Source: a virus. Taken from it: 64,000 bases of DNA. Location: positions 34,894 through 98,893 of IMG/VR virus record IMGVR_UViG_3300009506_000009. One strand, 5' to 3'. The notes beneath the pieces are model-generated. The model worked only from the letters and a program-made list of their open reading frames with translations, did not search any database and had not been told where the DNA came from. How positions within the stretch are numbered: position 1 is the stretch's first letter; each line of letters begins with the position of its first letter. Below, one piece after another: positions 245-30,664 of the stretch. The position numbers and the translations under genes are program-made.

Positions 245-451
245 AGATTGACCAGAGAACTCGTCGCTGTACGGCAGTGCCGTATAGAGGAACTTCAGGA
301 CTCCACTGCTAGAGGAAGGAGGCTAACGCCGATTGCACTTCCGAGGGAGCAAGCCAAACAGACCTAGCTGGAAAGCAGGGCAATGATGGTCGGGTTGGTG
401 CATAGGTAGATGACGAGATAGAACAGAATCCTGGGTAAGCTCAGTCAATCT
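245..451 (+). ncRNA. rnpB: RNase P RNA, minimal form (catalytic domain, ~35-nt residual S-domain, no P18)
   Basis: P1 AGATTGAC/GTCAATCT (245-252/444-451); P2 CTCGTCG/TGACGAG; P3 hairpin 267-287; CR-I GAGGAACTTCAGGACTCC; P5 CTCC/GGAG followed by CAAGCCAAA; P15/P16 with GGGT loop; CR-V AACAGAATCCTGGGTAA pairs CR-I to form P4 with bulged U. Confidence 0.9.
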
Positions 452-456
452 TTCAC

Positions 457-528
457 TGACATGTGGTATAATGGTATTATGTCCGGCTGTTAACCGGAAC
501 GATGTAGGTTCGAATCCTACCGTGTCAG
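457..528 (+). tRNA. tRNA-Asn(GTT)
   Basis: Cloverleaf; anticodon arm TCCGG-CTGTTAA-CCGGA; T-loop TTCGAAT; followed by CCT. Confidence 0.95.
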
Positions 529-543
529 CCTTTAGGAGGAACC

Positions 544-894
544 ATGGCGAAAGATCGAAACATCAGAAAGAAGACCCGCTTCAACCCATACAAGAGTTGG
601 GAAGGCGACTGTGAGAGCTTCTCAGATGCTAGTCGTCGCCAGTTTGCCGAAGAACAAGTGGACCCCCCACGCAATAGACATATTAGAAAAAAGAAGAAAC
701 TGATCTTCATTATGGCTACAGCCTATGGTACCCCAAAGTGGTACATGCCAAAGGGTGCCTGGAGAATAGGCAAGTATGAGAAGATGCGGGATGCTGAAAA
801 GGCTCTGGAGACCATGCAGAATAAACGCTGGCCTGGAGACTTCTACGAATTGAGAATCGAAGACAGGAGACCTGAGAGTGAAAAGACTGCGTAG
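544..894 (+). CDS. hypothetical basic protein
   Basis: ORF with AGGAGG RBS. Confidence 0.6.
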   Translation: MAKDRNIRKKTRFNPYKSWEGDCESFSDASRRQFAEEQVDPPRNRHIRKKKKLIFIMATAYGTPKWYMPKGAWRIGKYEKMRDAEKALETMQNKRWPGDFYELRIEDRRPESEKTA

Positions 895-1927
895 CTTTTT
901 AATTGGGATTGTAATCGGGCTGATCGTTGTGTATCTACTTTCATCCTGTAAGCCAGAAGAAGAGATCAAATCTATCCCACAGACTCTACCAAGGCAGTAC
1001 CAAGTAATCCTTCCATTAGCGATGAAGAATTATAGAGTTCCTACTATCGTTGCTGTTGAAGCAGAGACTCCTGCTGATCCCAATCAATACCTATGGATGG
1101 GGGATATTCTAAAAGTGTCATGTGGTGCTGAGAATACTGAACGGTATGGTATGTCGTACTGTACTGACAAGGTTAAAGGGTTCCCGGATGGAACACACAT
1201 CTGGTTACAGTTAAAGCAGGGACACTCCTGGTGGGTTACTCCAGCATGTAGACCTATACCAGAGAAGTATTGGGATGCCTGGGTTGAGCAGTTTGCTCTT
1301 GTTGTGATCCAGGAAATGGAAGACATTCTTGGTCCAGATGCAGTTTGGTATCTGTCGTATACAAATGAACCAGATACTTCTTTTGCAGGTTTGGGTGAGT
1401 GGCTCGGGTGTTGGGGTGAGACCTTTGAAGAAGGTCAATATTATGCTCAGTTCGCAAATCATGTAATCCCACAAATCCGGGCACGATATCCACATATTAG
1501 GCATGTTGTAGGTGAGTTTATTAATTATGGGTTGCCTTTTGCAGAGGGTGTAGCATCAACAATTACAGAGGCTGATGTTATCTCTTTTCATAGTTATAGT
1601 GGATGTGGCTGGAGCACAACAGGACTTGTTGAGCGTAAGATAGCTTGGTTCACAGAAAACTTTCCTGGTTTTCCCTTAGCTTTATCTGAGACAGGAATGA
1701 CCTATGATACCCCATCGGATGAATGTGATCTTCAGCAAGCAGAGTATGTAAAGTTTGTAACCAGCGATATTGATGTAGAAGCAGTGGGTTTATATACAGG
1801 CTGGCCTAACGGTTGGAAAAATACAGACTTGACAAGGTTTGATAAAGATGGTAAAATTGAACTTAAGCCGTCATATTTTGTTTACGAGTCACTACAGATA
1901 TCCAAGGGATGGGAACCTTGGAGATAA
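878..1927 (+). CDS. lipoprotein with clan GH-A glycoside hydrolase-like domain
   Basis: Signal peptide ending LLSSC; TNEPD acid/base motif, FHSY, LSETG nucleophile motif; VILPLAMKN motif. Confidence 0.65.
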   Translation: MKRLRSFLIGIVIGLIVVYLLSSCKPEEEIKSIPQTLPRQYQVILPLAMKNYRVPTIVAVEAETPADPNQYLWMGDILKVSCGAENTERYGMSYCTDKVKGFPDGTHIWLQLKQGHSWWVTPACRPIPEKYWDAWVEQFALVVIQEMEDILGPDAVWYLSYTNEPDTSFAGLGEWLGCWGETFEEGQYYAQFANHVIPQIRARYPHIRHVVGEFINYGLPFAEGVASTITEADVISFHSYSGCGWSTTGLVERKIAWFTENFPGFPLALSETGMTYDTPSDECDLQQAEYVKFVTSDIDVEAVGLYTGWPNGWKNTDLTRFDKDGKIELKPSYFVYESLQISKGWEPWR

Positions 1928-1932
1928 ATAAT

Positions 1933-2004
1933 TGCCCTGTCGTACAACTGGCAGTATGCCTGACTCTGACTCAGGTGATCTAGGTTCAAATCCTAGCGGG
2001 GCGG
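1933..2004 (+). tRNA. tRNA-Gln(CTG)
   Basis: Anticodon arm CCTGA-CTCTGAC-TCAGG; T-loop TTCAAAT. Confidence 0.93.
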
Positions 2005-2007
2005 CTA

Positions 2008-2134
2008 GTGTATATAAGGTTCGTTACTAAGACGTATGCAGTGGAAGGTTGTTGGAGTTGCGTCCAAGAGGAAGCCTTTATCCGGGCACGTCGGGATACG
2101 GCATTCCACAAACCTCACTTCGAAGTATATACAC
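2008..2134 (+). ncRNA. putative structured RNA of unknown class
   Basis: Closing stem GTGTATATA/TATATACAC, nested AGGTT/AACCT and GTGGAA/TTCCAC, internal hairpins; no ORF. Confidence 0.5.
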
Positions 2135-2136
2135 AA

Positions 2137-2233
2137 ACAGGCTAATAAAGGCAAGTCTCGATTGAGACAGGAACTGTATGGTAGCCACTACACACCGTAG
2201 ACCCGGAGACTCCCTCACCTTGCCTTGGCCTGT
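2137..2233 (+). ncRNA. putative structured RNA of unknown class
   Basis: Closing stems ACAGGCT/GGCCTGT and AAGGCAA/TTGCCTT; ends 7 nt before tRNA-His. Confidence 0.45.
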
Positions 2234-2240
2234 ATAACAT

Positions 2241-2314
2241 GGAGCCTATAGTATAACGGTTCAACATTCCTGACTGTGGATCAGGAGATACGGGTTCGAA
2301 TCCCGTTAGGCTCC
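2241..2314 (+). tRNA. tRNA-His(GTG), G-1 encoded
   Basis: Anticodon arm CCTGA-CTGTGGA-TCAGG; G-1:C73 pair. Confidence 0.95.
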
Positions 2315-2499
2315 CAAGGAGTTACAATGAGTAAATATCAGATCGAAGAAAACCCAGGTGATCTGCCTACAGTATTGATGGTTGGTACCTTTAGCATTGA
2401 TCAGCTTCAAGAGATTATTGCTGAGATGGAAGACTTGTATGCTTCCCAGGATACTGACTTTACTGATGAGATTGTTTCTCAGATGATGGAGGATCGCTA

Positions 2500-2910
2500 A
2501 TGGCAGTTCTCGTAGGCAAGAATGCTGTAATCACCATTGACAACTCCAAACCGTTTTATACCACTGAGTTTGACTTGACGCCTATCAAGTATGTCAAAGA
2601 TGCTCTTCCAGAAGTTAGCATCACTGCTAATTTTGATGGTCTTGGTCCTTCATTAGACCTGTTCAGTTATGCTCAATACCATACAACCACGTTGTATTAC
2701 GAGACTGGAACATATTGGTTCTGCCACCGCAACAAGATGGAAGTATATACACGTGGTATGACAGTACTTGATAATACAGTTAGTATTGACTTCGAAGTTG
2801 TTCCTGGATCAGAAGTTGACCTAACAAACTATAGCTGGATTGCACGCTTCCTACGTTTCGTGTTTCGCCACAAAATGGGAAGAGTGGCAATTGAATACTT
2901 TACGAGGTGA
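2500..2910 (+). CDS. hypothetical protein
   Basis: ORF with GGAGG RBS, coupled to neighbours. Confidence 0.55.
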   Translation: MAVLVGKNAVITIDNSKPFYTTEFDLTPIKYVKDALPEVSITANFDGLGPSLDLFSYAQYHTTTLYYETGTYWFCHRNKMEVYTRGMTVLDNTVSIDFEVVPGSEVDLTNYSWIARFLRFVFRHKMGRVAIEYFTR

Positions 2911-3185
2911 GTATGCCTGTTATCTGGAAGTATGATCTTAGTGAAGTAGAGAGGCTAACGTATGTAGACATTCCAGGTCTGATACAGGTTTTGTCCGTTG
3001 GCACTCAGGATGATCAACCAGTTGTATGGGTTATGTGCCAGCCAAAAGAGCCAACGAAAAGGTACTTATTCTGGTATGCTCAAACAGGCCGTCCGTTTGA
3101 TCCAGACAAAGGTCTAAAGTATATTAATACAACTCAACACATGGGCGGTTTGTATGTAGCTCATTGGTTTTATATGCGGGTGTGA
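2907..3185 (+). CDS. hypothetical phage protein
   Basis: ORF; its last codons overlap tRNA-Gly. Confidence 0.55.
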   Translation: MSMPVIWKYDLSEVERLTYVDIPGLIQVLSVGTQDDQPVVWVMCQPKEPTKRYLFWYAQTGRPFDPDKGLKYINTTQHMGGLYVAHWFYMRV

Positions 3186-3246
3186 TGTAATGGTAACGTG
3201 CCGTCCTTCCAAGTCGGTCTTCGGAGTTCGAGTCTCCGCACCCGCA
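3176..3246 (+). tRNA. tRNA-Gly(TCC)
   Basis: GCGGGTG/CACCCGC acceptor; loop CTTCCAA; discriminator A. Confidence 0.92.
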
Positions 3247-3302
3247 CTTTTCATGTAATGATAATACCCCTTAGGAGGCACTATCACTACACAAAACATC
3301 AT

Positions 3303-3373
3303 GCGGTATTAGTTTAGGGGTAAAACGAGTGCTTGCCAAGTACTAGTCAGCAGTTCAAATCTGCTATACCGCT
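3303..3373 (+). tRNA. tRNA-Gly(GCC)
   Basis: GCGGTAT/ATACCGC acceptor; loop TTGCCAA. Confidence 0.92.
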
Positions 3374-3401
3374 CTGGTAACCATTAGACAGGAGAGAGGA
3401 T

Positions 3402-3674
3402 ATGTCTGAAAAAGTGTTTGTTTTGGTGAGTGAAGAAGGGGATGTGTATGGTGTGTTCAAAGATAAGGAAAATCTTGAATGGGAAATCCTGCGAGCCGCA
3501 ATGGACGGGTATGACCGGGACCCGGAACTACCATCGCCAGAGTTTGCATCCTTCTGTCTGATCCCGAACTACTATTCAGAAAACTCATATGGAGTTTACG
3601 TTGCAGGTATGGGAAAACACCCTGAGCCTTTCCTTTGGGATGTTGTTTATCTAGAAGAGAGCACACTCTATTAA
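3402..3674 (+). CDS. hypothetical protein
   Basis: ORF with GAGG RBS. Confidence 0.55.
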   Translation: MSEKVFVLVSEEGDVYGVFKDKENLEWEILRAAMDGYDRDPELPSPEFASFCLIPNYYSENSYGVYVAGMGKHPEPFLWDVVYLEESTLY

Positions 3675-3675
3675 T

Positions 3676-3747
3676 GCCCTGGTAGTCGAGCGGATAAGAC
3701 GCTACCCTGCGAAGGTAGAAGCGAAGGTTCGAGTCCTTCCTGGGGCA
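3676..3747 (+). tRNA. tRNA-Arg(GCG)
   Basis: Anticodon arm CTACC-CTGCGAA-GGTAG; T-loop TTCGAGT. Confidence 0.92.
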
Positions 3748-3748
3748 C

Positions 3749-3777
3749 TTGACAACTTCCGGCTCGTATGGTAAAAT
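3749..3777 (+). promoter_or_regulatory. sigma70/SigA promoter with extended -10
   Basis: TTGACA-17-(TGG)TAAAAT. Confidence 0.8.
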
Positions 3778-3783
3778 ACTTTT

Positions 3784-3833
3784 GCCGGGTTGGGGAAACT
3801 CTGGAGCGAGTCACTCCACCCCTCCCGGCTCCA
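3784..3833 (+). ncRNA. 50-nt minihelix-like RNA ending in UCCA
   Basis: Starts 7 nt after the -10; GCCGGG/CCCGGC-T-CCA, GGGG/CCCC, TGGAG-7-CTCCA. Confidence 0.45.
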
Positions 3834-3836
3834 CGA

Positions 3837-4085
3837 TATGGCGCAGATACCGAACGGTCAGAGTATTCTTGTATCATCTGTGGTTGGAATGAGATTAGTC
3901 CATCACTAGGATATTCTCCCCTACAAATAGACCATATCAACGGAGATTGGACGGATAACTCTCCAAAAAATCTTAGAGTTATATGTCCTAATTGTCACAG
4001 CCTCACGCCAACATACGGTTCTCAGAATACAACAATAGAGAAAAACGCAAGAGGTAGAGGCTTACAAAGAGAGTACAAGGGGTAA
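3837..4085 (+). pseudogene. HNH endonuclease, probably N-terminally truncated
   Basis: CIICGW...LQIDHINGDWTDNSPKNLRVICPNCHS; the ORF-track ATG (3768) lies inside the promoter and no RBS is evident. Confidence 0.7.
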
Positions 4086-4148
4086 GAGCCATATGGAGAG
4101 GCTACGGTCTGCAAAACCGTTTAAGGAGTTCGATTCTCCATTACCCCT
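4079..4148 (+). tRNA. tRNA-Cys(GCA)
   Basis: Anticodon arm ACGGT-CTGCAAA-ACCGT; U73. Confidence 0.9.
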
Positions 4149-4725
4149 CTGGAGAAACTATGTGGTTAAACTTAAAGCTCTGGTTAGAAGAATGGTGGAT
4201 ACTAATGTATAATTGGTATCGCTTAAAGAAGATCAACTACTTGATGTGGAAGCTTGATCGTCTAATGAAAAAGCATATTGTGGTTGAAGGTGACTTTAAA
4301 GTGAGTGAAGAACAGGAGAGTAGTAATGAGTCGAAGCAATAAAGAAATCAAACGGTTGGTGTCTGATGCGGCCTTGATAGTTGCTGGAATGGTTTTGTTT
4401 GTGTATGGTTTTGTGTCCAAAGACCCGTATGTGGCTTTTGGCGGGGCTGTTTGTTTTATTGTGGGGTTAATATAGTGTGCCTATATCGACTCCCACTTGC
4501 GTCTCTAGGAGTTTAGTAATGGCAGGAGAAAATATAGAACTAGGGTTGACGTGCATTAACGATGAGTTTCAGGATGCAGATGCGGTTGCCTTTGAAGACG
4601 ATCATGGTTTGCTTATTAGCTTATCCCACGATACGTACATCCGAATTGAGCCACAGGTGTTCCCAAAGCTGATCGCACTGATGGCAGAAACAATGGATGG
4701 GATGGTAGCCTTTTAATAATCGTAT

Positions 4726-4812
4726 GGAGTCGTGACAGAGTACGGTAATGTGCCCGGTTGCTACCCGGAGACCATGGGAAACCATGCGGAGGTTCAAATC
4801 CCCCCGGCTCCG
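4726..4812 (+). tRNA. tRNA-Ser(GCT)
   Basis: Loop TTGCTAC; long variable arm CATGG-GAAA-CCATG; G73. Confidence 0.92.
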
Positions 4813-5000
4813 CTGATGATTGTAGTATGAAGATGTTCGAAACTAACATAAGGAAAATCATGTTTTACTTTAACACTCAGAGCTTATCCATAGCTAAATC
4901 CCAATTGCCACTACTTGTGGAGTTTTTGGTTTGAGTGGATAAGTCTCGATTGATACAATGATTGGACCACCCAGGCCGGATGGTCTTTTTATTTGGAACC

Positions 5001-5029
5001 TTGACAACTGAATAGTAATGTGGTAAACT
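5001..5029 (+). promoter_or_regulatory. sigma70 promoter
   Basis: TTGACA-17-(TGG)TAAACT. Confidence 0.8.
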
Positions 5030-5035
5030 ATACTC

Positions 5036-5128
5036 GTGACGAAAAACAAACTCTTTCTCATTATTGCAATCTGCATCTTTCTAGGTCTCAGCCTGCTAGG
5101 TGCAATCTCATATCTGATGTTTTCTTAG
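5036..5128 (+). CDS. 30-aa single-TM peptide, leaderless
   Basis: GTG 6 nt after the -10; MTKNKLFLIIAICIFLGLSLLGAISYLMFS. Confidence 0.45.
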   Translation: MTKNKLFLIIAICIFLGLSLLGAISYLMFS

Positions 5129-5138
5129 CAATAATATT

Positions 5139-5211
5139 GGAGGCGTAGCGCAAAGGTTAGAGCACCCGTCTCATAAACGGTAGGTTGAGAGTTCGATTCT
5201 CTCCGCCTCCA
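5139..5211 (+). tRNA. tRNA-Met or Ile2 (CAT)
   Basis: Loop CTCATAA; G1-C72 paired, so not an initiator. Confidence 0.9.
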
Positions 5212-5222
5212 CAGGAGTTCTT

Positions 5223-5735
5223 ATGATCATTGGATGTGTATATAGGCTAGAAGCAAGTGGTGATGTGAATGGTATCCCGCTGTTTCTGTATGATAACGGA
5301 AGTACCGTGGATGTCCGTGGTTTCCCTAACATAACGTCTGACGACATGAAGTTCGTGCTCTCATGGGCGTCCAAACCAACGGATGATGATATAGAGATCG
5401 TGTGGAAAAATATCTCAGCACCATACTTTTTGCACCTGTTCCGTGATCAGTATGTATCTGAGGTCCCAATTCAATACGTGCATATTGGTATCTTCAAACA
5501 TCTGGCGTACAAGTATCCGCCAGCAATGGTACAGCACGATGTCACCAGCCAATTAAAATCCCTTGATGCATATTGGTCAAACGTGGCACGGCAGGTTGCT
5601 GGACTAACTAACTTACAACAGTGGACCATGCTTGAGCTTCGTGACCTGAAATATACACCGGAGCAGATTGCTAATGAGCTTGGGATCGATGAAGCTGTTG
5701 TGATCGAGTACTTCAAAACAAACATATTGGTATAG
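5223..5735 (+). CDS. protein with C-terminal HTH (sigma region 4-like)
   Basis: LTNLQQWTMLELRDLKYTPEQIANELGIDEAVV. Confidence 0.55.
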   Translation: MIIGCVYRLEASGDVNGIPLFLYDNGSTVDVRGFPNITSDDMKFVLSWASKPTDDDIEIVWKNISAPYFLHLFRDQYVSEVPIQYVHIGIFKHLAYKYPPAMVQHDVTSQLKSLDAYWSNVARQVAGLTNLQQWTMLELRDLKYTPEQIANELGIDEAVVIEYFKTNILV

Positions 5736-5736
5736 A

Positions 5737-5810
5737 GCCGTCATAGTTTAATGGATAAAACAGACGCCTTTTAAGCGATCAGACTGAGGGTTCGAGTCCT
5801 TCTGGCGGCA
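5737..5810 (+). tRNA. tRNA-Lys(TTT)
   Basis: Loop CTTTTAA; T-loop TTCGAGT. Confidence 0.9.
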
Positions 5811-5831
5811 TAAAAACTATGGAAATCATAA

Positions 5832-6113
5832 ATGCACATTGACAAGTTCAACAGCTACGTGCGTATTCTAAGCACACGTTTTTGGGTAAGACATTGGTAC
5901 AACTTCTATGATGTGCCCCTGTTTACTGACCACAAGCGCACTATGGCGATCAGCCTAATTGACCTTGTTGATCGTAAGAATATGTTTGAAGAAGTCTGTC
6001 GGGACTTAAAGAAAGCCGGGTTTGATGTCCGAGTAAAGCTGGATGCAACTAGCCCCTACCCATATGCGGAGTTGGTTGCGTTTGTAGAAAGAACAGATTG
6101 GCCTATAGTGTAA
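5832..6113 (+). CDS. hypothetical protein
   Basis: ORF; 3' end overlaps tRNA-Gln. Confidence 0.5.
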   Translation: MHIDKFNSYVRILSTRFWVRHWYNFYDVPLFTDHKRTMAISLIDLVDRKNMFEEVCRDLKKAGFDVRVKLDATSPYPYAELVAFVERTDWPIV

Positions 6114-6170
6114 TGGTTATCACGTCTGCCTTTGAAGCAGAAGACCCAGGTTCGAACCCTGGTGGGCCAG
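6099..6170 (+). tRNA. tRNA-Gln(TTG)
   Basis: Anticodon arm TCTGC-CTTTGAA-GCAGA. Confidence 0.93.
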
Positions 6171-6200
6171 CTAACCTATCAATGAGTGAAGGAGATTAAA

Positions 6201-6728
6201 ATGATTAACCCAAATCAAGGAAGCGGTGTGAAAATCCAGATTAACAGTTTAGCGGCATTAGAACGTCTGCTCGGTGATGATGCGAAAATGGAGATCGAAG
6301 TTCGGCAGTCTGTTGTAGAAGCTTTTGCTCGTGGTTTTGTAAAGAACATTGCGAATGCTGATGCTGTTGCTAAGGTTATCGAAGACCTTAAAGACTTTGT
6401 GAAACGGGAAGTTGTGGAAGAGACATCTAACCAGATGGCAATGGCTGGTATTGTCAAGGATGGGTCCTGGTATCAGACGAAGTTGAAACTTACCGATACT
6501 GCTGAAGAGAAGATCGCATCGGAAGTACGTATACAAGTGTATGATAATATACGTAAAGCAATCAGCGAAATGAATATTGATGAGATTGTAACCCGTTATG
6601 TTACGGATGCTATCCGTCGTGAAGTCAACCATCAGGTCAAGGCTATCACCCAATCCACTGTTATGGCATCCCTACAGTTGGCAATGGATCAAGCCTTAGA
6701 TACTGACCCGGTAGATAATGAAGATTAA
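6201..6728 (+). CDS. hypothetical helical protein
   Basis: ORF with AAGGAG RBS before ATG 6201. Confidence 0.6.
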   Translation: MINPNQGSGVKIQINSLAALERLLGDDAKMEIEVRQSVVEAFARGFVKNIANADAVAKVIEDLKDFVKREVVEETSNQMAMAGIVKDGSWYQTKLKLTDTAEEKIASEVRIQVYDNIRKAISEMNIDEIVTRYVTDAIRREVNHQVKAITQSTVMASLQLAMDQALDTDPVDNED

Positions 6729-6852
6729 ACTTACGCTTTACAATGATGATGGTCAGCCTGTTGCATCTGCTACTCTGAAGTCCGGGGTAGTGGATGCCAA
6801 CGGTAATATCTTGACAGAAGAAGCCCTACGAAGTATGGTAGGTAGTATAAAT

Positions 6853-6934
6853 ACCAGCGTGGCGGAACTGGTTTACGCAGAGGACTTAAAACCCTCCGAC
6901 TCCGGTCATGTGGGTTCGACTCCCACCGCTGGTA
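6853..6934 (+). tRNA. tRNA-Leu(TAA)
   Basis: Loop CTTAAAA; variable arm; ACCAGCG/CGCTGGT acceptor. Confidence 0.92.
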
Positions 6935-6946
6935 CAAAGGATTAGC

Positions 6947-7378
6947 ATGGACATTCTCGAAGTGCAGTATGGTATCATCGTCCATCAGGTAAACTTACAA
7001 GGTAAGATGGGTGCTGGTCTTGCAAAGCAAGTCAAAGAAACGTACCCACTCAATTATGAGAAATACCTGGAAGATTATCATGTACGTGTCCTTGGGGATG
7101 TCTTGGTTGTGACTGTAAAAAAGAACCTTCACATTGCTAACCTGTATGGACAAGAGAGCGTTGGTGCAGGTCTCCAAACAGATTATACCGCTATAGCAAC
7201 AGGTCTCGACTTGATTGCTCATTGGTCTGAGCATGCACAGCTTCCTGTATATATTCCAGAGAAGATGGGATGCGGCCTCGGTGGTGGAAACTGGAATGCA
7301 ATCAAAGCGATTATTAAAGATACAATTCCGTATGCCTGGATCGTTTCTTTAGAAAGGTCTACACCGTATAGATTATGA
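6947..7378 (+). CDS. macrodomain (ADP-ribose processing) protein
   Basis: HQVNLQGKMGAGLAKQVKETYP and KMGCGLGGGNW motifs. Confidence 0.85.
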   Translation: MDILEVQYGIIVHQVNLQGKMGAGLAKQVKETYPLNYEKYLEDYHVRVLGDVLVVTVKKNLHIANLYGQESVGAGLQTDYTAIATGLDLIAHWSEHAQLPVYIPEKMGCGLGGGNWNAIKAIIKDTIPYAWIVSLERSTPYRL

Positions 7379-7845
7379 CTCCTATACCACAACCTGCTAA
7401 CTTGTCGTACATTGTAGGTTCTCACTTTAACCATATTGAAGTATGTACTGCATTCCCACGCACACGAGAAGATATCTCCAGGATGTCTTGTGGTCACATT
7501 TCGGTAGAGAGTGTAACGTATGATGATAGGCCAGATGGCACAGTTATGTGGGTAAAACCTGGAACAGCAGGAGATATTATTAGAAGCGGTACTGTTACAT
7601 ACTTTGCAATCTGTGACAGTCACAGTACACCTATCCTGGTAAATACATTCACACAGAAGTTTCAATTGCAGGAAGGTTGCATCTTTACATTGGCTCCGTT
7701 TGATGTTACTTTGGCTCCAACAGATGTAGTGGTAGGCACGTATCCATACAACGATTCGGGCCTAAACGAAATAGAGTGCATCTACTGTGGACAACCAAGG
7801 CGTCCAAATATACCGTGCCCACATTGTGGTGGGCGCATAGACTAG
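7375..7845 (+). CDS. hypothetical protein with C-terminal Zn ribbon
   Basis: CIYCG...CPHCGG. Confidence 0.5.
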   Translation: MTPIPQPANLSYIVGSHFNHIEVCTAFPRTREDISRMSCGHISVESVTYDDRPDGTVMWVKPGTAGDIIRSGTVTYFAICDSHSTPILVNTFTQKFQLQEGCIFTLAPFDVTLAPTDVVVGTYPYNDSGLNEIECIYCGQPRRPNIPCPHCGGRID

Positions 7846-7926
7846 CCAGCATGGTGGAATTGGCAGACACAGTGTCCTCAAAAGGCACCGGGTAAAACCG
7901 TGAGAGTTCGACTCTCTCTGCTGGCA
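7845..7926 (+). tRNA. tRNA-Leu(CAA)
   Basis: Anticodon arm GTGTC-CTCAAAA-GGCAC; variable arm. Confidence 0.93.
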
Positions 7927-8820
7927 CAAAGGATCAACATGCTTCCAACACAGATTTATGATCTTGAGATTGACGTACAAGGGGTCTTCACCATGACAGG
8001 CAACTCCCCTATCCCTATTGTGGTTGGTCATATTTTCATTACATCTACTGGTATGATTGTTCGCATTACTGAGGTTGAGATAGATTTTGACACAAGAAAG
8101 ATTATGTGTAAAGCAATGTCCAACCTAATCACGTTTACAGAAATTGAAAATGGTTCAGCCTATAACTGATAAGAGAGTAGAGTGGTACTATATTTACCTA
8201 CCAGAATTAGGAACCAACCCATTAACCATATCCCTGTTATCCCGAAGAGCCGTCCCAGGATTGTTCCTAGGTTTTGATAACAGGGTTTATTTGTATTCAG
8301 AGGTTGTAGATATTAGTAACCCGCACCATCCATACATCGTATGTACACATGTTGATGGTGATCTAAAATATTTAAATGTGGAGGCCACACGTGCGAGTCA
8401 TTTACAAAGGACGGGTGATCGGGGAGTGCCCCGACGAACACAGATCAGGAGAAACTGTGCAATTAGCTGGATCGGATTACGTAATTTTATACGTAGACAA
8501 GCTAAACGATTTAGTAGCTATAGTTCAAAAGGTAGAGTGATAAATGAAGAAAGCACCTGCATACTGTTATGGAACTAGAGATGGGACCTATCTTGTTATC
8601 CGGGATTGGGGGCACGCTAGGATTGTTCCTGCTGAGGAGGCGTTGGATGGGAGGCATATTCTTCTTGTATATACCGCACTTGGGACTGCGAAGAAGGCCC
8701 TATCCTCCAGAGTAATATATCCTTTTTATCAAGACGGTAACCGTTGGCATTATAAGAATGACGGCAGTACGCCGTTGGTAACAAAGGAGCTACTTGTGAT
8801 CTTACCTCTAAAACTGACCC

Positions 8821-10140: not shown

Positions 10141-10151
10141 AGGAAGTAAGA

Positions 10152-14623: not shown

Positions 14624-15814
14624 ATGGCAGACCTTTATATCCCAGGCAACCCATCAATAGATGAGGCAATAGAATACTTCGGCGCAGAAGCAATGAAGCA
14701 GGTCCAGACCCTGGTCTCTCGACCAGAGTTTACTCATGTGCGCCTAATGCGGGATGGTCACCTTGGCTATCAGTCTATGCCAATCGGTGGGGTAACTGTA
14801 TCACATCGATATATTGCTCCTGGTGGGGCAGGGTTTGATATTGGGTGTGGTAATTGGGCTGGTAAAACAGAAGTTCATATGTCTTACTTAACCAGAGGTG
14901 ACCTGTATGAATTGGGGATCGAAATCTCTAAGAAGATTGCTATTGGTCTTGGTCAGGCTTATGGTACGTTCGCTGACCACCCACTGCTTCCAGACATCAT
15001 CCATGCAGTTAAGGATGCTCATATCAATATCACACCTGAAGTTATCATTAACCAGTTTGGTTCCGTTGGTGCAGGCAACCACTATATTGACCTGATGACA
15101 GACTCCGAAGGATATATCTGGATCGCTCTTCACTATGGCTCCCGTAAGCTTGGGCATACCATTGCTGATCACTACCTTAAGATGCTTGGAGCTAATGACG
15201 GTATGTTCTCGATGCCTGTATTCCTGGATACATGGTCGATGGTTGGTCAAGAGTACCTACGCCTTATGGAGCTTGCAGGTGAGTATGCTAGAGTATCACG
15301 CCGCTTGGTAGGTACAAAGATTGCTACGCAAATCCTTCAAGACACTGTGGTTGATGTAGTAGAGAACCACCACAACTACATCTGGCAGGAAGTACATCAT
15401 GGTGAAGCTGTCTATGTTACCCGCAAGGGTGCAACTCCCGTTCACCCAGGTGTACGTGCTTTCATCGGTGGCTCCATGGGTACGGACTCAATTATTGTGG
15501 AAGCAATTGACTGTGACGAAAACAACAAGACATTCCGCTCGGCTATGCATGGTGCTGGACGTACTATCAGCCGTGGTATGGCAAAGGGTAAGTTTACACG
15601 CAGTGGAGAAATGAAGCGTGCTCCACTAGTAACAAAGGAAATGATGAACGGCTGGATGAATACGGAAGGGATCATTCGGATTGGTGGTGGGGTTGACGAG
15701 TCACCACACTGCTACCGTAACTTGATCGAAGATGTGCTTCCTTATTACCCGCACCTTAAGGTTAAGGAAATCCTATCTCCAGTCGTAGTTATCATGAACC
15801 CTGATGAGCATTAA
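14624..15814 (+). CDS. rtcB: RtcB RNA ligase
   Basis: DGHLG, GFDIGCG, GAGNHY, LHYGSR, HHN, RKGAT, HGAGR, DESP motifs. Confidence 0.95.
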   Translation: MADLYIPGNPSIDEAIEYFGAEAMKQVQTLVSRPEFTHVRLMRDGHLGYQSMPIGGVTVSHRYIAPGGAGFDIGCGNWAGKTEVHMSYLTRGDLYELGIEISKKIAIGLGQAYGTFADHPLLPDIIHAVKDAHINITPEVIINQFGSVGAGNHYIDLMTDSEGYIWIALHYGSRKLGHTIADHYLKMLGANDGMFSMPVFLDTWSMVGQEYLRLMELAGEYARVSRRLVGTKIATQILQDTVVDVVENHHNYIWQEVHHGEAVYVTRKGATPVHPGVRAFIGGSMGTDSIIVEAIDCDENNKTFRSAMHGAGRTISRGMAKGKFTRSGEMKRAPLVTKEMMNGWMNTEGIIRIGGGVDESPHCYRNLIEDVLPYYPHLKVKEILSPVVVIMNPDEH

Positions 15815-15881: not shown

Positions 15882-16682
15882 ATGAAAAACGAACTCAGCC
15901 TACTAGAATATATGTACAACCTGGACCTGCTAGGGTTCAGGGGTTCCCTGCCACCTGTGGAAAATAAAATCTTCGAAGTGTATGCCGGGTCCTATGGTCG
16001 TAAGATCGCTGGTCTTATGTCAGATGTAGATATCGTGGCTGTGTATGTACCAGACTATGATGACCTTTACGGGCACCTTGTACCTGGGTTTGGTACAAAG
16101 ACAGAACGCTTCAAAGCCTTTCACACACCAGACTATATGGTGAAGCTCAATGCTGGTATGAAGAAAGTAGATGTAACAGCGTTTGATGTGGTACACTTCT
16201 TCAACTTACTACTCAAAGGTAGCCCAAATCATGTGGAATACCTATTCCTTGAGCCAGGACGTAAGCTCACAGAAGCTGGAAGTATCCTGCTGGCTAATCG
16301 TGATCTGTTTGTTACGCAAACACTGGTTACCAAGCTGATCGCCGCAGGCAAACACATCATGCTTAGAGAAAGCCCACACTCCATCAAAGACTACATGCTG
16401 GCTACCCGCTTCTTTATCTATGCGGTACACGCCTACAGCCATGGAACACTGATGCCTGAACTTACGGTTAAGCTAATGCGAGAGATTAGGGATACAAATG
16501 ATTGGGATTACGCTCAGATGTGGGCAAAATCTTTCTATGAGCATGTCACTCAACTAGTAGAGACAAAAGATACTTTTATCCCGAAAGAAACCAGTGAAGA
16601 GCTTGCTAATGAAGTCCTGCTACAGGTCCTACACGCTCATTGGAACTCACGAGCAAAGGAGAACTATGACTGCTACTCTTGA
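15882..16682 (+). CDS. Pol-beta superfamily nucleotidyltransferase (RlaP/YcgL-like)
   Basis: AGSYGRKIAGLMSDVDIVAVY, FFNLLLKGSPNHVEYLF; adjacent to rtcB. Confidence 0.75.
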   Translation: MKNELSLLEYMYNLDLLGFRGSLPPVENKIFEVYAGSYGRKIAGLMSDVDIVAVYVPDYDDLYGHLVPGFGTKTERFKAFHTPDYMVKLNAGMKKVDVTAFDVVHFFNLLLKGSPNHVEYLFLEPGRKLTEAGSILLANRDLFVTQTLVTKLIAAGKHIMLRESPHSIKDYMLATRFFIYAVHAYSHGTLMPELTVKLMREIRDTNDWDYAQMWAKSFYEHVTQLVETKDTFIPKETSEELANEVLLQVLHAHWNSRAKENYDCYS

Positions 16683-22499: not shown

Positions 22500-23272
22500 G
22501 GTTTTTGAAATCCACCAACAAAAAAATTAAGGCCCCCTTTCCTTCGGGATTGGGGGTCTCTTTTTTTATTTATTTATTTCAATTTCTTTTTCTATTTTAT
22601 TTTGTTTTAAATATTTTATTGCATTTTCTAATGTGGGTATTTTCTCTTTGAGTAAGCCTAGAGATACGTTACATCCATGACACAAAACTCCTCGATACTT
22701 TCCCGTGTCATGGTCATGATCGATGCATAGCTGTTCTTCACTCCCGCATATCTCACATTGCGTAGGCATCTGCTGTAGATCAGTTAATGTCATGTTGTAC
22801 CGGGTAGCGTATACCCCCCACCCTTTATCTGTGCAGGATGTACAGTACTTTTTAGACGCAGGCTCCCCACATATCTCACAAACGACATCAAGCTCTATCT
22901 TGCCTTCTCTCTGCCACAGGTCTATGGTGCTTGAGTGCACATCGACTAGGGTTGCTAACTCCGTCCTCCGAATGTTAGGCCGTACCTCTAAAATATCCTG
23001 TGCCATCAGGAGCTTACGGTTGCAACTTTTTGATATGTTGTATAGATGGGGATCACGACTCTTTGCCCAGTAGCTTACTGATTGGGTTGAGATTCCGAAC
23101 ATTCGACTTACCTGTTCCAGGGTTAGGTTTGTGTGCAGGAATATATCTGCAACTAGCTGTTTGTATTTTGGGTGGTATGCCATACCGGACATTATACCAC
23201 AGGTGGGGGTAATTGTCAAATCGGGCCTACGGGTGGTGGTGGTCAGGGTTTTTGAAACACCACAAAAATTAA
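22498..23272. repeat. imperfect direct repeats flanking the EndoVII-type gene
   Basis: AGGGTTTTTGAAA-TCCACCAACAAAAAAATTAA (22498-22530) and AGGGTTTTTGAAA-CACCACAAAAATTAA (23245-23272). Confidence 0.75.
22566..23183 (-). CDS. HTH + endonuclease VII domain protein (homing endonuclease-like)
   Basis: Two HTH-like segments; CEICG...LCIDHDHDTGKYRGVLCHGCNVSLG; leaderless from TTGACA(23219-14)-17-TATAAT(23196-91). Confidence 0.85.
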   Translation of the reverse strand: MAYHPKYKQLVADIFLHTNLTLEQVSRMFGISTQSVSYWAKSRDPHLYNISKSCNRKLLMAQDILEVRPNIRRTELATLVDVHSSTIDLWQREGKIELDVVCEICGEPASKKYCTSCTDKGWGVYATRYNMTLTDLQQMPTQCEICGSEEQLCIDHDHDTGKYRGVLCHGCNVSLGLLKEKIPTLENAIKYLKQNKIEKEIEINK

Positions 23273-23279
23273 CTGCCAG

Positions 23280-24698: not shown

Positions 24699-24799
24699 TC
24701 CGTAGGACTAACGATTTCACTCAGCACATCCGACCTGCTTGCGAAGCAGGCTAAGTACTTCGTACTTAGTCAACCTACCCCTAAATCGGAGATTTAGCC

Positions 24800-24928: not shown

Positions 24929-25008
24929 GCACGCCAATTTCTCAACTCAGCGTATCCGACCTGCTTGCGAAGCAAGCAGAGATCACACATTAGTCCAAGG
25001 AGTATATC

Positions 25009-25290: not shown

Positions 25291-25300
25291 GAGATAAGCC

Positions 25301-25531: not shown

Positions 25532-25624
25532 CGTTTGTCATAGTCAACTAGTGACATTTGTCACTGTCCAAGTCATGCCAACCCCAGTATACTGGGGATA
25601 AATCTGCACCACAGGAGTTTAGCT

Positions 25625-26011: not shown

Positions 26012-26066
26012 TCGGCTGACAAGTACTGGGACCCCTTCGGGGGTCCCAATTTCCAGGAGTAAAATC

Positions 26067-26669: not shown

Positions 26670-26892
26670 GAAAGCCAACCTGATCCTGGACATCCGGGAT
26701 CGAGAGCACTTGGCAGGTGTTCCACCTGTCAACCTGGAAGGTTACGACTGGCAAGCACTTCGTGCTTACTATCGGAGCCTGACCCCTGTTATCACAGGGG
26801 ACGACCGACCGTTCAACCCCGAAGCCCACTACGGGACCCTTGGGGATTATTACGACAGTCAGGAATGACTGTCAATTTGCAGGAGTAAAGCC

Positions 26893-27219
26893 ATGACCAT
26901 CACACTGACCGCCCACGTGTTAGACCGTATTGCCGACCGACCGCTCATCAGCTATGCTGACCTGTGCAAGGCCGTTGACAACATCGAGCAGTGGATTGGC
27001 AAGTATGCCAAGTGCCGCCAAGTGGCGGTAGTACTGCGTGAGTATGACCACTGCGTGAACCTGGGGAACACCTACGGTGACCGTCTGGTTCTCGTGGTGG
27101 ATGTGGAACAGGGTACTGTTCCGACGATCTTCTGCCGCAACAAAGTCCAACGTAAGCCGCAGTCAGTCCAGGCATACGTGAACATGTACGGGTATCCGGT
27201 GCAGGCCGGACGCCGATAG
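26893..27219 (+). CDS. putative BECR-fold/DUF4258-like ribonuclease
   Basis: ITLTAHVLDRIADR N-terminus; LVLVVD...VPTIF C-terminal strands. Confidence 0.4.
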   Translation: MTITLTAHVLDRIADRPLISYADLCKAVDNIEQWIGKYAKCRQVAVVLREYDHCVNLGNTYGDRLVLVVDVEQGTVPTIFCRNKVQRKPQSVQAYVNMYGYPVQAGRR

Positions 27220-27499
27220 GAGCAAGTTATGCCACCCCTAGTTGTTGTCCCAATCCTGATTGCACTGATTGCATGGTGCATTGGCCTGCTGTCCTACTTC
27301 GTAGGGCAGTTCTTCGAAGTCGAGAGCTTTATACTTGTGAGCAAGTTCTGTAAACTGACCATTGTGCTCTGCTTTTTAGCAGAGATCGCCGTAGTTGTAT
27401 CCACCTGTTAGTCCAGCCAGACCTAAGCCAGTCGGCTTACATCGCAGTCACACGTCCCGACTGGCTAGGATTTCATCCTAGAACCGAAGGAGTAATGAG

Positions 27500-27703
27500 A
27501 TGACATATTACACAGTCGAAATCCGCAGTGACGGTGAAACCGTCATGATAGGACGTACACCAGGGTTGGACACAGCCCTGCTCACCGTGCACACCAACCT
27601 GAAGCACTACGGGGGATTGGTCAAGCCCGTGCGTAACGTCAAGCACCGATGGGTGGGGTACGTTGATGGGCACACCATCGCCATCCAGGTAACACAGGCG
27701 TAA
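27500..27703 (+). CDS. hypothetical protein
   Basis: AAGGAG RBS. Confidence 0.55.
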   Translation: MTYYTVEIRSDGETVMIGRTPGLDTALLTVHTNLKHYGGLVKPVRNVKHRWVGYVDGHTIAIQVTQA

Positions 27704-27710
27704 GTACTGG

Positions 27711-27822
27711 CTGGTGCTTCGCTCTCCGCCGACCCTATTGGGGTAGCCTACCAAGGCATGGGCGATGATGGACGACCCCCAGGCGTCCGGGGCGGACAGC
27801 GGGGCATCAGTTTTATTTTTTT
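27711..27822 (+). ncRNA. multibranch structured RNA followed by a U-tract
   Basis: CTGGTGC/GCATCAG, TTCGCT/AGCGGG, TCCGCC/GGCGGA nested stems with internal hairpins; TTTTATTTTTTTT after. Confidence 0.5.
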
Positions 27823-28819
27823 TCTCTCGTGTGTACATGTGCGTACACGTATTGGGTTTTTTAGAGTACTTTGCGGGGTCCCTTTTCCGGTCCCTATAGG
27901 AGAGTGAGTGATGAAAGTCGGACGTATTGCAGTAAACGCCCAATGTTTCTTGGGCAACCTTCCCTTCCAGGCTGTAAGCCTTCCCGAAAGTCTGGCACAC
28001 TGGAAGTTCTACCTGGACACACACATGTCCATCATCGAGACCCCTGGTCTCAGCTTCACGGATTGGAACCTGGGCAACGACTGCTTTGGGTTCTACTTTT
28101 GGGATACCGAAGGCAACGACATCACCACGCAAGCACTGGCACAGATCAGCGACGTGCACTTGCGCCTATATGCTGGTTGTCGGTCAGCCTGCCTAGTTTT
28201 CCACCTTACCGAAGGTAACCACACAGATCAGGCATGGGTTTGGTTCCAAGCCTGCACCATCCGATAGGAGAGTATCATGTTGACAGTTTCGAAAGTTCGT
28301 GTTACCCTTAAGGGTAAGCAAGCAGTGAAGGCAGTATTCACCACCACAGGTGAGTACTTCACCTTCCGCTATGGGTCATGGATGACCCCTGGCTCCATCC
28401 TGCACCTGGACAGTGCGGGTAAGCCTGTCCGTGGTGACATCCGCAGGGGTGAGGACGCAGATGGACCCATCTTCACCGAAGGTGTGGCCTTGTGGCCCAT
28501 CTAAGTACAGGCAGGGGTCGAAGGACCCCTGATTTCGGACCATTCAACCTAATGAGTACAAAGGAGTAGATCATGAGAAACGTTTACGGAGTACGCTGTG
28601 GTAGTGAGAGTATGTACGGGCATGTGATCTGTGTGGTCGCCGCTGAAAGCGTAACAGAAGCACGTGATGTAGTTCGCAAATCACAGGAGTACGCCACACT
28701 CAACAAGCAATGGCAAGTATACTGCACATCGCTGAATGCAGTCAATGGTCCCTTCGGGATCACTAGTCAGGAAACAGGTGTTTTACACACCTATCCAGAG
28801 TTAAATTAGGAGATTACAC

Positions 28820-29266
28820 ATGTTAACTTTAGTTCCAGCATACGGTCGTGATTACAAAAGCAAGGCGGCAGTCCAGGCGGACCTGGACGCAGGCAAGGAC
28901 TTCGAAGTAGTCTGGACGCCTGTCGATCCTGGTGGGTACGCAACTGCGTCGGACCTGTTAGAAGACGGGCACACTCAGGTGCGGGTGCGCTACCAGCGTA
29001 AGACCAAGGTGGGAGTGTTTACACTCCATGAGCCTGAGCCATATGACAAGGGTCTTGAGCAGGGGGCAACGAACCTGGAAGAGTTCGTCAACACGTACAT
29101 CAGTACGCCAGTAGCCTGGGCGACCATGTTCTTGATAGATCATGACAAAGACATCCAGAAAATGCTTGATGATGGGGATGGTAGTGAGTATGAGAAGAGT
29201 TCTTTCAAAGACATGATTGCTGAGTTGGCAGACGCCCTGCAACAATGGGCAGAAGATGAGGAGTAA
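28820..29266 (+). CDS. conserved phage protein
   Basis: LVPAYGRDYKSKAAVQADLDAGKDF. Confidence 0.6.
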   Translation: MLTLVPAYGRDYKSKAAVQADLDAGKDFEVVWTPVDPGGYATASDLLEDGHTQVRVRYQRKTKVGVFTLHEPEPYDKGLEQGATNLEEFVNTYISTPVAWATMFLIDHDKDIQKMLDDGDGSEYEKSSFKDMIAELADALQQWAEDEE

Positions 29267-29275
29267 GGAGTAAAC

Positions 29276-30664
29276 ATGCACTGGATACAAACCCCACAAG
29301 CAATACGTGACTTCGCCCTTATGCTCAGCATCGCTTTCGGTGCTGAGACCTGGGTGGTTGGGGGCGCATGCCGGGATACAGTCCTGGGTGACACCCCACA
29401 TGACATCGACATCGAGATCACTGGGTTGAGTGAGTACAACTTGACCCACTTGCCCTTCGCTCAGGTAATACCTGGGGGTGATCGGTTCGGTGTTTGGATT
29501 GTGACCTTCCACGATGAGACCTTCGAAGTGGCACTGCCACAAACCCGTGAGCGTGTGGGTGATGGTCACTCAGGCGAGATCGCACACATCGACCCGAACC
29601 TGCCCATTGAGCAGAGCTTAGCACGCCGAGACTTCACGGCTAACGCCATCGCCTGGAATGTGCTGACCGAAGAGATCGTTGATCCCTTCGACGGGATTGA
29701 TGACATCCACACTGGCATCTTACGGGCAGTGAATGCAGGCAACTTCGCTGATGACCCACTGAGAGTACTACGTGGTGTGCAGTTAGCATCACGCACTGGG
29801 CTGGTCCCTGATTGCCCAACGGTATCCGCCGCACAAGCACAGATCGGCGGGTTCAGTGCCCTGAGTTCGGATCGTGTGCGCCAGGAGTGGGTGAAGTGGG
29901 CGCAAGGTTCAACCCCTGCACTGGGCATCAAGTTCCTGGTCGAGTGTGGTTGGATCGAGTGCTTCCCATCGCTGAATGCCTTACGTGAGACGGAGCAGGA
30001 CCCCATCTGGCATCCCGAAGGGGACGCCTTGACCCACACAATCTTTGCCCTGGAAGTCCAGCCAAGCTGTGACCCCATCATCAACTGGGCAATCCTACTG
30101 CACGACATTGCCAAGCCACACTGCACGGCTACTCGTGAAGATGGACGCATCATCAGCCCCGGTCATGACCAACTGGGTGCGGACATGATCCCGGATGTAC
30201 TACGTGAGTTCGGGTTCGAGATACACGGACGCATCCCGGAGTGGGTGCAGGCAGTGCAGGCCATCGTTCGGGAGCACATGTGGGCGGCAAGCCTGAGTGG
30301 TGCACCTGGACACCGTGGTGTACGACGCTTAGCACGACGCTTAGCACCTGCCACTGTTCGTCAGTGGGGTGCTGTCTGCTTAGCAGATGTGGGTGGTCGA
30401 GCAATTGCTCGGAGTGAGAGAAACTCACTGATTGACACCATCCTGGATGTAGCCGAAGACGCTACCAGCCTGGGCATCGTAGATGACGGGCCTGCCAAGA
30501 TCGTCACGGGCAAGTTGCTGATCGAGCATGACATCATCGAGCCTGGAATTGCCATGGGCAAGCTGATCGACCTGCTGTTTGAGCTACAGCTAGACGGATG
30601 GTTCACGGACGAAGAGATCGGGCTACAGTTTGCACGTGAGTTAGTCGAGAACGTGCAGTTATGA
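29276..30664 (+). CDS. cca: class II tRNA nucleotidyltransferase (CCA-adding) with HD domain
   Basis: VVGGACRD, DIDIE, EVALPQTRE, RRDFTANA, DPLRVLRG, HPEGDALTHT, LLHDIAK. Confidence 0.92.
   Translation: MHWIQTPQAIRDFALMLSIAFGAETWVVGGACRDTVLGDTPHDIDIEITGLSEYNLTHLPFAQVIPGGDRFGVWIVTFHDETFEVALPQTRERVGDGHSGEIAHIDPNLPIEQSLARRDFTANAIAWNVLTEEIVDPFDGIDDIHTGILRAVNAGNFADDPLRVLRGVQLASRTGLVPDCPTVSAAQAQIGGFSALSSDRVRQEWVKWAQGSTPALGIKFLVECGWIECFPSLNALRETEQDPIWHPEGDALTHTIFALEVQPSCDPIINWAILLHDIAKPHCTATREDGRIISPGHDQLGADMIPDVLREFGFEIHGRIPEWVQAVQAIVREHMWAASLSGAPGHRGVRRLARRLAPATVRQWGAVCLADVGGRAIARSERNSLIDTILDVAEDATSLGIVDDGPAKIVTGKLLIEHDIIEPGIAMGKLIDLLFELQLDGWFTDEEIGLQFARELVENVQL

Follow-up and report, generated by a model that had tools for sequence, protein, structure and literature searches.

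In a 64,000-nucleotide (nt) stretch of DNA from an uncultured tailed phage, we identified a 207-nt RNA that has the catalytic domain of bacterial ribonuclease P (RNase P) RNA and lacks its specificity domain. This stretch, hereafter called the window, covers positions 34,894–98,893 of the IMG/VR virus record IMGVR_UViG_3300009506_000009, and the RNA occupies window positions 247–453 on the plus strand. RNase P is one of the two universal ribozymes, and we know of no virus that supplies an active RNase P of its own. The window also contains 13 tRNA genes without an encoded CCA, and genes for the RNA ligase RtcB, an RlaP-like nucleotidyltransferase, and a CCA-adding enzyme with an HD domain. A preliminary description of the sequence had taken all of these elements together as a complete phage pathway for tRNA maturation and repair that is independent of the host. 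Weighing the evidence presented below, we favor, with moderate confidence, a reading in which the miniature RNase P RNA works with the RnpA protein of the host, and the other genes are loosely associated tRNA-repair accessories.

A miniature RNase P RNA reduced to the catalytic domain

The Rfam model of bacterial type-A RNase P RNA (RF00010) was matched end to end (model positions 1–367) within only 207 nt, with a score of 42.9 bits and an E-value of 2.6e-10. When Rfam was applied at its gathering threshold, no RNase P RNA was reported, and the ribozyme was seen in the E-value mode only. Because the score lies under the gathering threshold, standard annotation would overlook this ribozyme, and for the same reason we sought independent support in the covariation of its family. 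R1, a covariance model built from members of that family, matched the RNA with 192.6 bits. The RF00010 alignment retains P1, P2, P3, conserved region I (CR-I), P4, P5, P15/16, a J18/2-like stretch, and CR-V, and lacks roughly 140 model positions in the specificity domain (P7–P14, CR-II/III) as well as P18. Judged against RF00010, the catalytic core (P1–P4, the bulged U in P4, CR-I, and CR-V) is present, with a conservation that is partly set by our search patterns. The P6 pseudoknot and the P15–P17 arm with the GGU of L15 are also present, but not the specificity domain or P18. We describe the element as a miniature RNase P RNA of type-A ancestry that consists of the catalytic domain only, and the RNase P RNA noticed in the preliminary description is indeed there.

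The structure can be followed along the plus strand of the window. The 5′ strand of P1 (247–257) pairs with 440–449, and double changes were observed in 10 of its 10 pairs. The 5′ strand of P2 (260–266, CUCGUCG) pairs with UGACGAG at 411–417 and is pseudoknotted with P4. The P3 hairpin (267–287; strands 267–275 and 279–287) was read from the sequence, and its helix is 94.9% paired across the family. CR-I (287–305) comprises GAGGAA in J3/4, the 5′ strand of P4 (292–300, with the bulged U at 295), and the 5′ strand of P5 (301–304), and is followed by the 5′ strand of the P6 pseudoknot (306–310, CUGCU), which pairs with AGCAG at 374–378 in the loop of P17. A stub of approximately 35 nt (311–345), composed of a helix (314–318/338–342) and a small hairpin, stands in place of P7–P14. 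The P15–P16–P17 arm (353–399) has helices that are 92–97% paired and carries the GGU of L15 at 393–395; in type-A enzymes, this GGU binds the 3′ RCCA of the tRNA. The last segment (402–436), in which P18 is absent, contains the J18/2-like sequence AUAGGUAGAUG, the 3′ strand of P2, CR-V (ACAGAAUCC, 423–431), and the 3′ strand of P4 (429–436).

Covariation and distribution of the ribozyme family

Approximately 50 candidate loci were gathered by pattern scans of IMG/VR and by BLAST searches against phage records, and R1 was built from six copies. With this model, 47 full-length copies of 195–253 nt were found in viral records. The pattern matches L040, L042, L045, and L046 missed an E-value of 0.001 with R1 and were excluded from the alignment and from the co-occurrence counts. 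Across the 39 distinct rows of the alignment, 93.3% of the cells were paired, compared with 32–39% when the partners were slid; compensatory double changes were observed in 38 of 45 pairs, and the observed measures were reached by none of 500 shuffles. In these rows, P4 was 99.7% paired with five covarying pairs, and P5 was 99.4% paired. The helix in the stub was 76% paired and also covaries. The P2 and P6 pseudoknots cannot be represented in R1, and their covariation was assessed separately. For P2, 36 of 38 copies had at least seven complementary bases, in 28 sequence types (mean, 7.2 vs. 4.0 in shuffled sequences), and for P6, 35 of 38 had at least four, in more than 12 sequence pairs (mean, 5.3 vs. 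3.65). All helices of the catalytic domain (P1–P6 and P15–P17) covary across the family. The search patterns required GAGGAA, UC, GACU, AGCAA, and ACAGAAUC; the GGU of L15 and the elements CGC, AG..AU, and UA, which lie outside every search pattern, are at least 97% conserved.

These results bear on the explanation that the element is a decaying, nonfunctional fragment of a captured host rnpB gene, which would account for a score below the Rfam threshold and a length about half the normal size. The covariation effectively refutes it: one architecture is shared by 47 copies from widely differing phages, with compensatory changes in every helix, and the deletion takes out exactly one structural domain.

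One search pattern detected 34 stretches in IMG/VR, compared with two in 185,579 prokaryotic species genomes, and on this basis the miniature ribozyme looks virus-specific. Of the two matches in the prokaryotic set, both on short contigs of metagenome-assembled genomes, one is a tRNA array. When the ribozyme and tRNA region of the present contig was compared by BLASTN with 50,697 phage records, nearly no DNA-level matches were obtained, the only ones being to the cultured Stenotrophomonas phage vB_SmaS-DLP_6 (hereafter DLP_6) and two huge uncultured phages. DLP_6 carries an unannotated RNase P-like RNA of 249 nt (KU682439.2, 105774–106022; L002, 2890–3138) that scores 54.7 bits with RF00010 and 159 bits with R1. 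This RNA has an extra insertion at the place expected for P18 and lies 3 nt upstream of a tRNA-Arg gene. As a cultured carrier, DLP_6 makes the ribozyme experimentally testable. The two huge uncultured phages among the carriers are 735 kb and 635 kb in size. The latter (LR745206.1) has its miniature RNase P RNA at about 502060–502282 and encodes a full-length RnpA at 76444–76752 on the plus strand (PF00825, 49 bits), the sole RnpA found among the 47 carriers.

A spacing of 3 nt between the ribozyme and the following tRNA gene is common to the present phage (tRNA-Asn), DLP_6, and a third carrier, L005. Across the family, a downstream tRNA lies within 10 nt in only 7 of 31 ribozyme copies, and some copies have no tRNA nearby. 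The arrays beside the ribozymes contain 299 tRNAs with a full CCA, 51 with CC only, and 103 with C only. On one viral contig (L007), a GOLLD RNA (191.6 bits, above the gathering score) is located in the same tRNA array as the ribozyme, and the ribozyme model gives a second, partial match directly upstream of the full copy (L007 coordinates, 7430–7900 (−) and 3409–3509 (−)).

The tRNA island and its 3′ ends

The 13 tRNA genes of the window were detected by ARAGORN at 457–7927, all on the plus strand; Rfam confirmed 12 of the 13, and all lack CCA, as stated in the preliminary description. They are only the 3′ third of the tRNA array of the contig, which has 36 tRNAs for all 20 amino acids and a transfer-messenger RNA (tmRNA) at contig positions 22558–42820, and this region is a 20-kb “translation island.” The first tRNA gene of the window, tRNA-Asn (GUU) at 457–530, has its 5′ end 3 nt past the ribozyme model. 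It is followed by the genes for tRNA-Gln-CUG (starting at 1933), His (2242), Gly-UCC (3176), Gly-GCC (3303), Arg-GCG (3676), Cys (4079), Ser-GCU (4726), Met (5139), Lys-UUU (5737), Gln-UUG (6099), Leu-UAA (6853), and Leu-CAA (7845, ending at 7927).

None of the 36 tRNA genes of the contig encodes CCA; nonetheless, C74, the C immediately behind the discriminator, is encoded in 35 of the 36, and in four of the genes CC is followed by T. The related phage arrays are uniform in this respect, each having C only (L001, L007, L047, and L048), CC only (L006 and L025), or the full CCA. The retention of one or two C residues is possibly tied to pairing with the GGU of L15 or to a determinant of 3′ processing, and tRNA genes that keep C74 only pose a testable question about substrate recognition and 3′-end processing.

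Near-consensus sigma-70 promoters (TTGACA, 17 nt, TAAAAT-like) recur along the array, at window positions 1829–1857, 3749–3777, 5001–5029, and 6811–6839 on the plus strand, and three of these four have the TG of an extended −10 element. Overall, 28 promoter-like sites were found, compared with 16.2 expected. Such repeated sigma-70-type promoters would drive the tRNA/tmRNA island.

Several other features of the island were observed. The tmRNA gene (contig 31785–32072, plus strand) directly follows tRNA-Tyr and scores 47.7 bits with Rfam against a gathering score of 47, and its predicted tag is unusually long (30 residues, ending in VAA). Upstream of the window, at contig positions 26978–27096 (L052, 6978–7096), a tRNA-like gene has a hairpin of 45 nt inserted into its anticodon arm. 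Its acceptor, D, and T arms are normal, C74 is absent, and the Rfam tRNA model matches it with 48 bits over 119 nt; it was detected by ARAGORN in the intron mode only, and a group I intron would need more than 45 nt. Genes for HNH homing-type endonucleases are scattered among the tRNA genes (window 3768–4085 and contig 30803–31336, both on the plus strand). Between the two tRNA-Leu genes, window positions 6908–7378 (plus strand) encode a macrodomain protein (DarG/Appr-1′′-p-like) that matches PDB 5e3b (7.5e-9) and the NCBIfam family DarG (2.6e-11), and that is labeled “phosphatase” in phrog_335. We considered this protein as an RNA end-healing enzyme and rejected that reading in favor of the macrodomain assignment. 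It is probably a counter-defense gene that removes ADP-ribose.

RtcB, RlaP-like, and CCA-adding genes

The protein genes named in the preliminary description were all recovered by profile searches, and their catalytic motifs look intact from the sequence. RtcB, a 3′-phosphate RNA ligase of 396 aa, is encoded at window positions 14624–15814 (plus strand; PF01139, E-value 1.4e-52, 179.8 bits against a cut-off of 27). Its motifs DGH, DIGCG, GNHY, HYGSRKLGH, HHN, and MHGAGR align with the metal ligands and the His404 nucleophile of RtcB from P. horikoshii. The protein is a short form of RtcB, and no relatives of the locus were found in IMG/VR. A Pol-beta nucleotidyltransferase of 266 aa resembling RlaP is encoded at 15882–16682 (plus strand), starting 68 nt past the stop codon of RtcB. 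It contains the GS...DxD motif (AGS...DVD) and matches the nucleotidyltransferase family phrog_388 (5e-17); its score with PF10127 is about 23–23.7 bits against a cut-off of 23, so that its predicted membership of the RlaP family is marginal. The sole homologue found is 41% identical and carries PF10127, and no relative was found in the PDB by sequence.

The third gene (29276–30664, plus strand) encodes a class-II tRNA nucleotidyltransferase of 462 aa with a C-terminal HD domain, putatively of the CCA-adding type in preference to CC addition, A addition, or poly(A) synthesis (PF01743, E-value 6.8e-20, 72.1 bits against a cut-off of 23). Motifs A (GG..RD and DxD), B (RRD), C, and D (DxxR) are all present. 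The HD domain scores 22.0 bits, equal to the Pfam cut-off of 22 and therefore marginal, and the H..HD..H ligands are found as HPEGD, LLHD, and GHD. The best NCBIfam match was to the multifunctional CCA addition/repair family (1.5e-38, 132.7 bits against an equivalog cut-off of 451 bits), and the CCA families of NCBIfam ranked above PcnB, all far under their equivalog cut-offs. The enzyme is 25–32% identical to other phage enzymes.

The substrates of RtcB and its neighbor would, by the known activities of these families, be broken tRNAs. It is also conceivable that the two proteins act mainly on other RNAs, for example on rRNA or mRNA in the manner of RtcB2/PrfH ribosome repair, or on the halves of unusual tRNA-like genes, which they would join. 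The short form of RtcB points in this direction, as the PrfH-associated “release_rtcB” family is among its best NCBIfam matches, far below the cut-off, and so does the island gene with the 45-nt anticodon-arm insertion, which could not be a group I intron. Against this, no PrfH-type release factor was found on the contig, no splicing endonuclease was detected among the open reading frames (ORFs) screened, and published comparative genomics links phage RtcB and RlaP to tRNA repair (PMC7824862). We consider a main role on other RNAs unlikely.

One pathway or separate accessories

The known activities of the parts do span removal of the 5′ leader, addition or repair of CCA, and sealing of breaks with 2′,3′-cyclic-phosphate and 5′-OH ends, as had been proposed. 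It would follow from the preliminary description that the ribozyme, the CCA enzyme, RtcB, and RlaP make up a single pathway that is complete, co-selected, host-independent, and tied to CCA-less tRNA genes. The presence of all four components and CCA-less tRNAs on one contig is consistent with this idea, as is the joint occurrence of the ribozyme, rtcB, and cca in four other carriers (G010, G014, G036, and LR756501). However, several steps are missing. On the contig, profile searches did not find RnpA, a 3′ trimming nuclease of the RNase Z or RNase T type, or PNK, RtcA, Archease, Rnl1, and Pth (families absent: PF00825, PF12706, PF00929, PF13671, PF01137, PF01951, and PF09511), and family scans of the large ORFs of the contig gave no synthetase or tRNA modification enzyme. 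Because of these missing steps, the terms “complete” and “independent of host” were overstated.

The co-occurrence of rnpB, cca, and rtcB in relatives, which the preliminary description had put forward as a test, also did not support a single pathway. RtcB was found in 8 of the 47 ribozyme-bearing records, a CCA-type enzyme over the cut-off in 11, and both in only 5. Neither protein was found in three of the six carrier records that are at least 90% complete, and in the complete genome of DLP_6, RtcB was not found and the head-domain match was sub-threshold only. The presence of an RtcB or CCA-type gene followed record size, being seen in 7 of 9 records of at least 200 kb, 7 of 15 of 90–200 kb, and none of 23 below 90 kb. 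Among the records with CCA-less arrays, 3 of 13 had a cca gene, compared with 1 of 20 among those with CCA-encoding arrays, a difference that is not significant (p = 0.28), and the ribozyme stands beside CCA, CC-only, and C-only arrays alike and is common beside CCA-encoding ones. RlaP was present in 5 of 8 RtcB-positive and 1 of 6 RtcB-negative records tested, and RtcB and RlaP are adjacent in the present contig only. Nor does gene order indicate a module: the genes are dispersed, 7–21 kb apart, amid genes for nucleotide and DNA metabolism. A single co-selected pathway is thus highly unlikely.

The data fit accessories that were acquired separately and share one pool of substrates, rather than a co-inherited or complete pathway. 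Because the accessories behave independently, the presence of several on a single contig should not be taken to indicate a system. The negative result has a meaning of its own, namely, that the tRNA-processing and repair genes of large phages behave as accessories gained one by one, in numbers that increase with genome size, and not as a fixed pathway.

The phage contig

Within a single IMG/VR viral contig of 98,893 bp that is classed as linear, the window makes up the 64 kb at the 3′ end. The contig comes from an uncultured tailed phage with a genome of at least about 99 kb. Its genes include an SU10-type capsid, a portal, a GpA terminase, tape-measure fragments, a family-A DNA polymerase, a GH25 lysin, ribonucleotide reductase, RecA, SSB, thymidylate kinase, MazG, and Endo VII. 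No close DNA relative of the contig was found among the 50,697 phage records. The contig begins and ends within open-ended, tape-measure-like ORFs of the same strand (contig 2–2206 (−) and window 62111–64000 (−)), the N-terminal part at the start of the contig and the C-terminal part at its end. Ends within one tape-measure gene suggest a near-complete, circularly permuted genome. When the contig ends were joined as a test of circular closure, the frames of the two tape-measure fragments did not agree, and no overlap of the termini was seen. An anti-restriction protein family is also represented in the window (39192–40070, plus strand; phrog_7245, E-value 1.6e-64).

Proposed role of the miniature ribozyme

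From the conserved structure, the motifs, the gene content, and the distribution, we infer how the ribozyme might act. It would be excised from a polycistronic transcript, and as the ribozyme ends 3 nt ahead of tRNA-Asn, RNase P cleavage at the 5′ end of this tRNA could also define the 3′ end of the ribozyme. The RNA would then pair with the RnpA of the host, since the phage encodes none, and add 5′-leader-cleaving capacity for the burst of the phage’s own pre-tRNAs. The RnpA gene of LR745206 supports the role of the RNA as a true RNase P subunit and implies that the other carriers borrow the host protein. Without reading of the T-loop, the substrates would be held mainly through the acceptor end and L15, which fits with the C74 kept in nearly all tRNA genes of the contig. 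The 3′ trailers would be trimmed by host nucleases, after which the phage CCA/HD enzyme would complete or repair the CCA end. RtcB, aided by the adjacent RlaP-like nucleotidyltransferase, would reseal tRNAs cut by metal-independent anticodon nucleases. In its strongest form, this proposal states that the 207-nt RNA is an active viral RNase P, a member of a phage-specific family of 195–253 nt and the smallest of the bacterial type known, which uses host RnpA and has no specificity domain, and that the retention of C74 is a substrate-side adaptation anchoring pre-tRNAs to the GGU of L15. We put this form forward tentatively, as a possibility that falls somewhat short of probable.

A different role must be weighed here, namely, that the miniature RNA is noncatalytic and acts as a decoy, sequestering host RnpA or competing for pre-tRNAs, and thereby shuts down or regulates tRNA maturation in the host. 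Carriers almost never encode their own RnpA, the specificity domain needed for efficient tRNA recognition is gone, and the RNase P-like RNA of camelpox virus was reported to be inactive and has been discussed as a decoy (PMC3001073); all of these would suit a decoy. A protein sponge, however, would have no need for the GGU of L15, the bulged U of P4, P6, or the nucleotides of CR-I and CR-V, all of which are conserved or covarying. Moreover, a block of RNase P would also stop the maturation of the phage’s own 36 tRNAs, and one carrier adds an RnpA of its own. We judge a decoy to be distinctly improbable.

Several points weigh against the miniature RNase P with host RnpA and its loose accessories. 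The score of 42.9 bits misses the RF00010 membership threshold (gathering score of 100), and the relatives reach only 44–61 bits. The invariance of the motifs that the search patterns required is circular, and the alignment from which the pairs were counted was fitted to the model. No promoter-like site was found directly upstream of the ribozyme. RnpA was not found in 46 of the 47 carriers, so that the protein partner is assumed. The CheckV completeness of the contig is 68%, and the gene absences noted above are therefore provisional. Finally, RlaP yields a 3′-OH and RtcB needs a 3′-phosphate, a mismatch pointed out in bioRxiv 10.64898/2025.12.29.696909, and neither a kinase nor a cyclase was found on the contig.

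If the ribozyme is active, the phage takeover of translation would extend from tRNAs and tmRNA to tRNA processing. A natural bacterial-type family without the specificity domain would reveal the minimal core with which RNase P can work in vivo, and would offer RNA biochemists dozens of natural minimal variants.

Comparison with known systems

The repair of PrrC-cut tRNA by Pnkp and Rnl1 of phage T4 is the classic case of phage tRNA repair. A kit of tRNAs, RtcB or Rnl ligases, RlaP, and a CCA enzyme has been described as a counter-defense RNA-repair system of large phages (PMC7824862), and is credited in that review to Burroughs and Aravind (2016). The present contig encodes protein families of this kit and would follow its proposed logic, in which tRNAs cut by ribotoxins are restored, nucleotides are re-added, and the CCA is rebuilt; RlaP extends damaged RNA 3′ ends by one or two nucleotides (bioRxiv 10.64898/2025.12.29.696909). 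It differs from the published kit in that PNK, RtcA, and Archease were not found on it. Compared with the multifunctional Cca of the E. coli type with an HD domain (NF008137), the phage enzyme shares the class-II head motifs A–D and the C-terminal HD phosphohydrolase signature, but is far below the equivalog cut-off of that family (132.7 vs. 451 bits).

The protein kit was already known, framing the set as a pathway adds little, and the emphasis placed on the ribozyme as the unusual component is borne out. The review of jumbo phages makes no mention of RNase P (PMC7824862), and no description of a phage-encoded RNase P RNA was found in the literature searched, a scope that leaves many subscription journals outside. 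The only viral precedent found is the inactive RNase P-like RNA of camelpox virus (PMC3001073), which is likewise a virus-encoded RNA resembling RNase P RNA. The camelpox RNA, in contrast, is an H1-type RNA of a eukaryotic virus, was reported without processing activity in vitro, and has no tRNA context. The phage RNA seems to be an undescribed, virus-specific variant of a known ribozyme.

Its best match end to end within the Rfam clan is bacterial type-A RNase P RNA (RF00010; M1 RNA, the rnpB product of E. coli, 377 nt). The two share P1–P6, P15–P17, the bulged U of P4, the GGU of L15, CR-I (GAGGAA..UC..G), a CR-IV-like J18/2, and CR-V (ACAGAAUCC). The phage RNA differs in its length of 207 nt, in the approximately 35-nt stub that replaces P7–P14, in the absence of P18, and in being encoded by a virus whose contig has no cognate rnpA. 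A natural parallel is offered by the archaeal type-T RNase P RNA of the Thermoproteaceae (about 200 nt; PMC3579882), which has lost nearly the whole specificity domain, is of similar size, and was overlooked at first by standard models. In that case, an archaeal core works with archaeal proteins in a cellular genome, whereas the phage RNA has a bacterial type-A core. A precedent for activity is an engineered one: the catalytic domain of the E. coli RNA without the specificity domain and P18 cleaves with reduced efficiency, and a P6-type pairing is important for it (Kirsebom laboratory, PMC5839562). The engineered RNA (Eco CP RPR) and the phage RNA share a catalytic domain that stands without the specificity domain, dispenses with P18, and keeps a P6-type pairing. 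The former is a laboratory construct, whereas the latter is a natural, conserved gene family with predicted activity.

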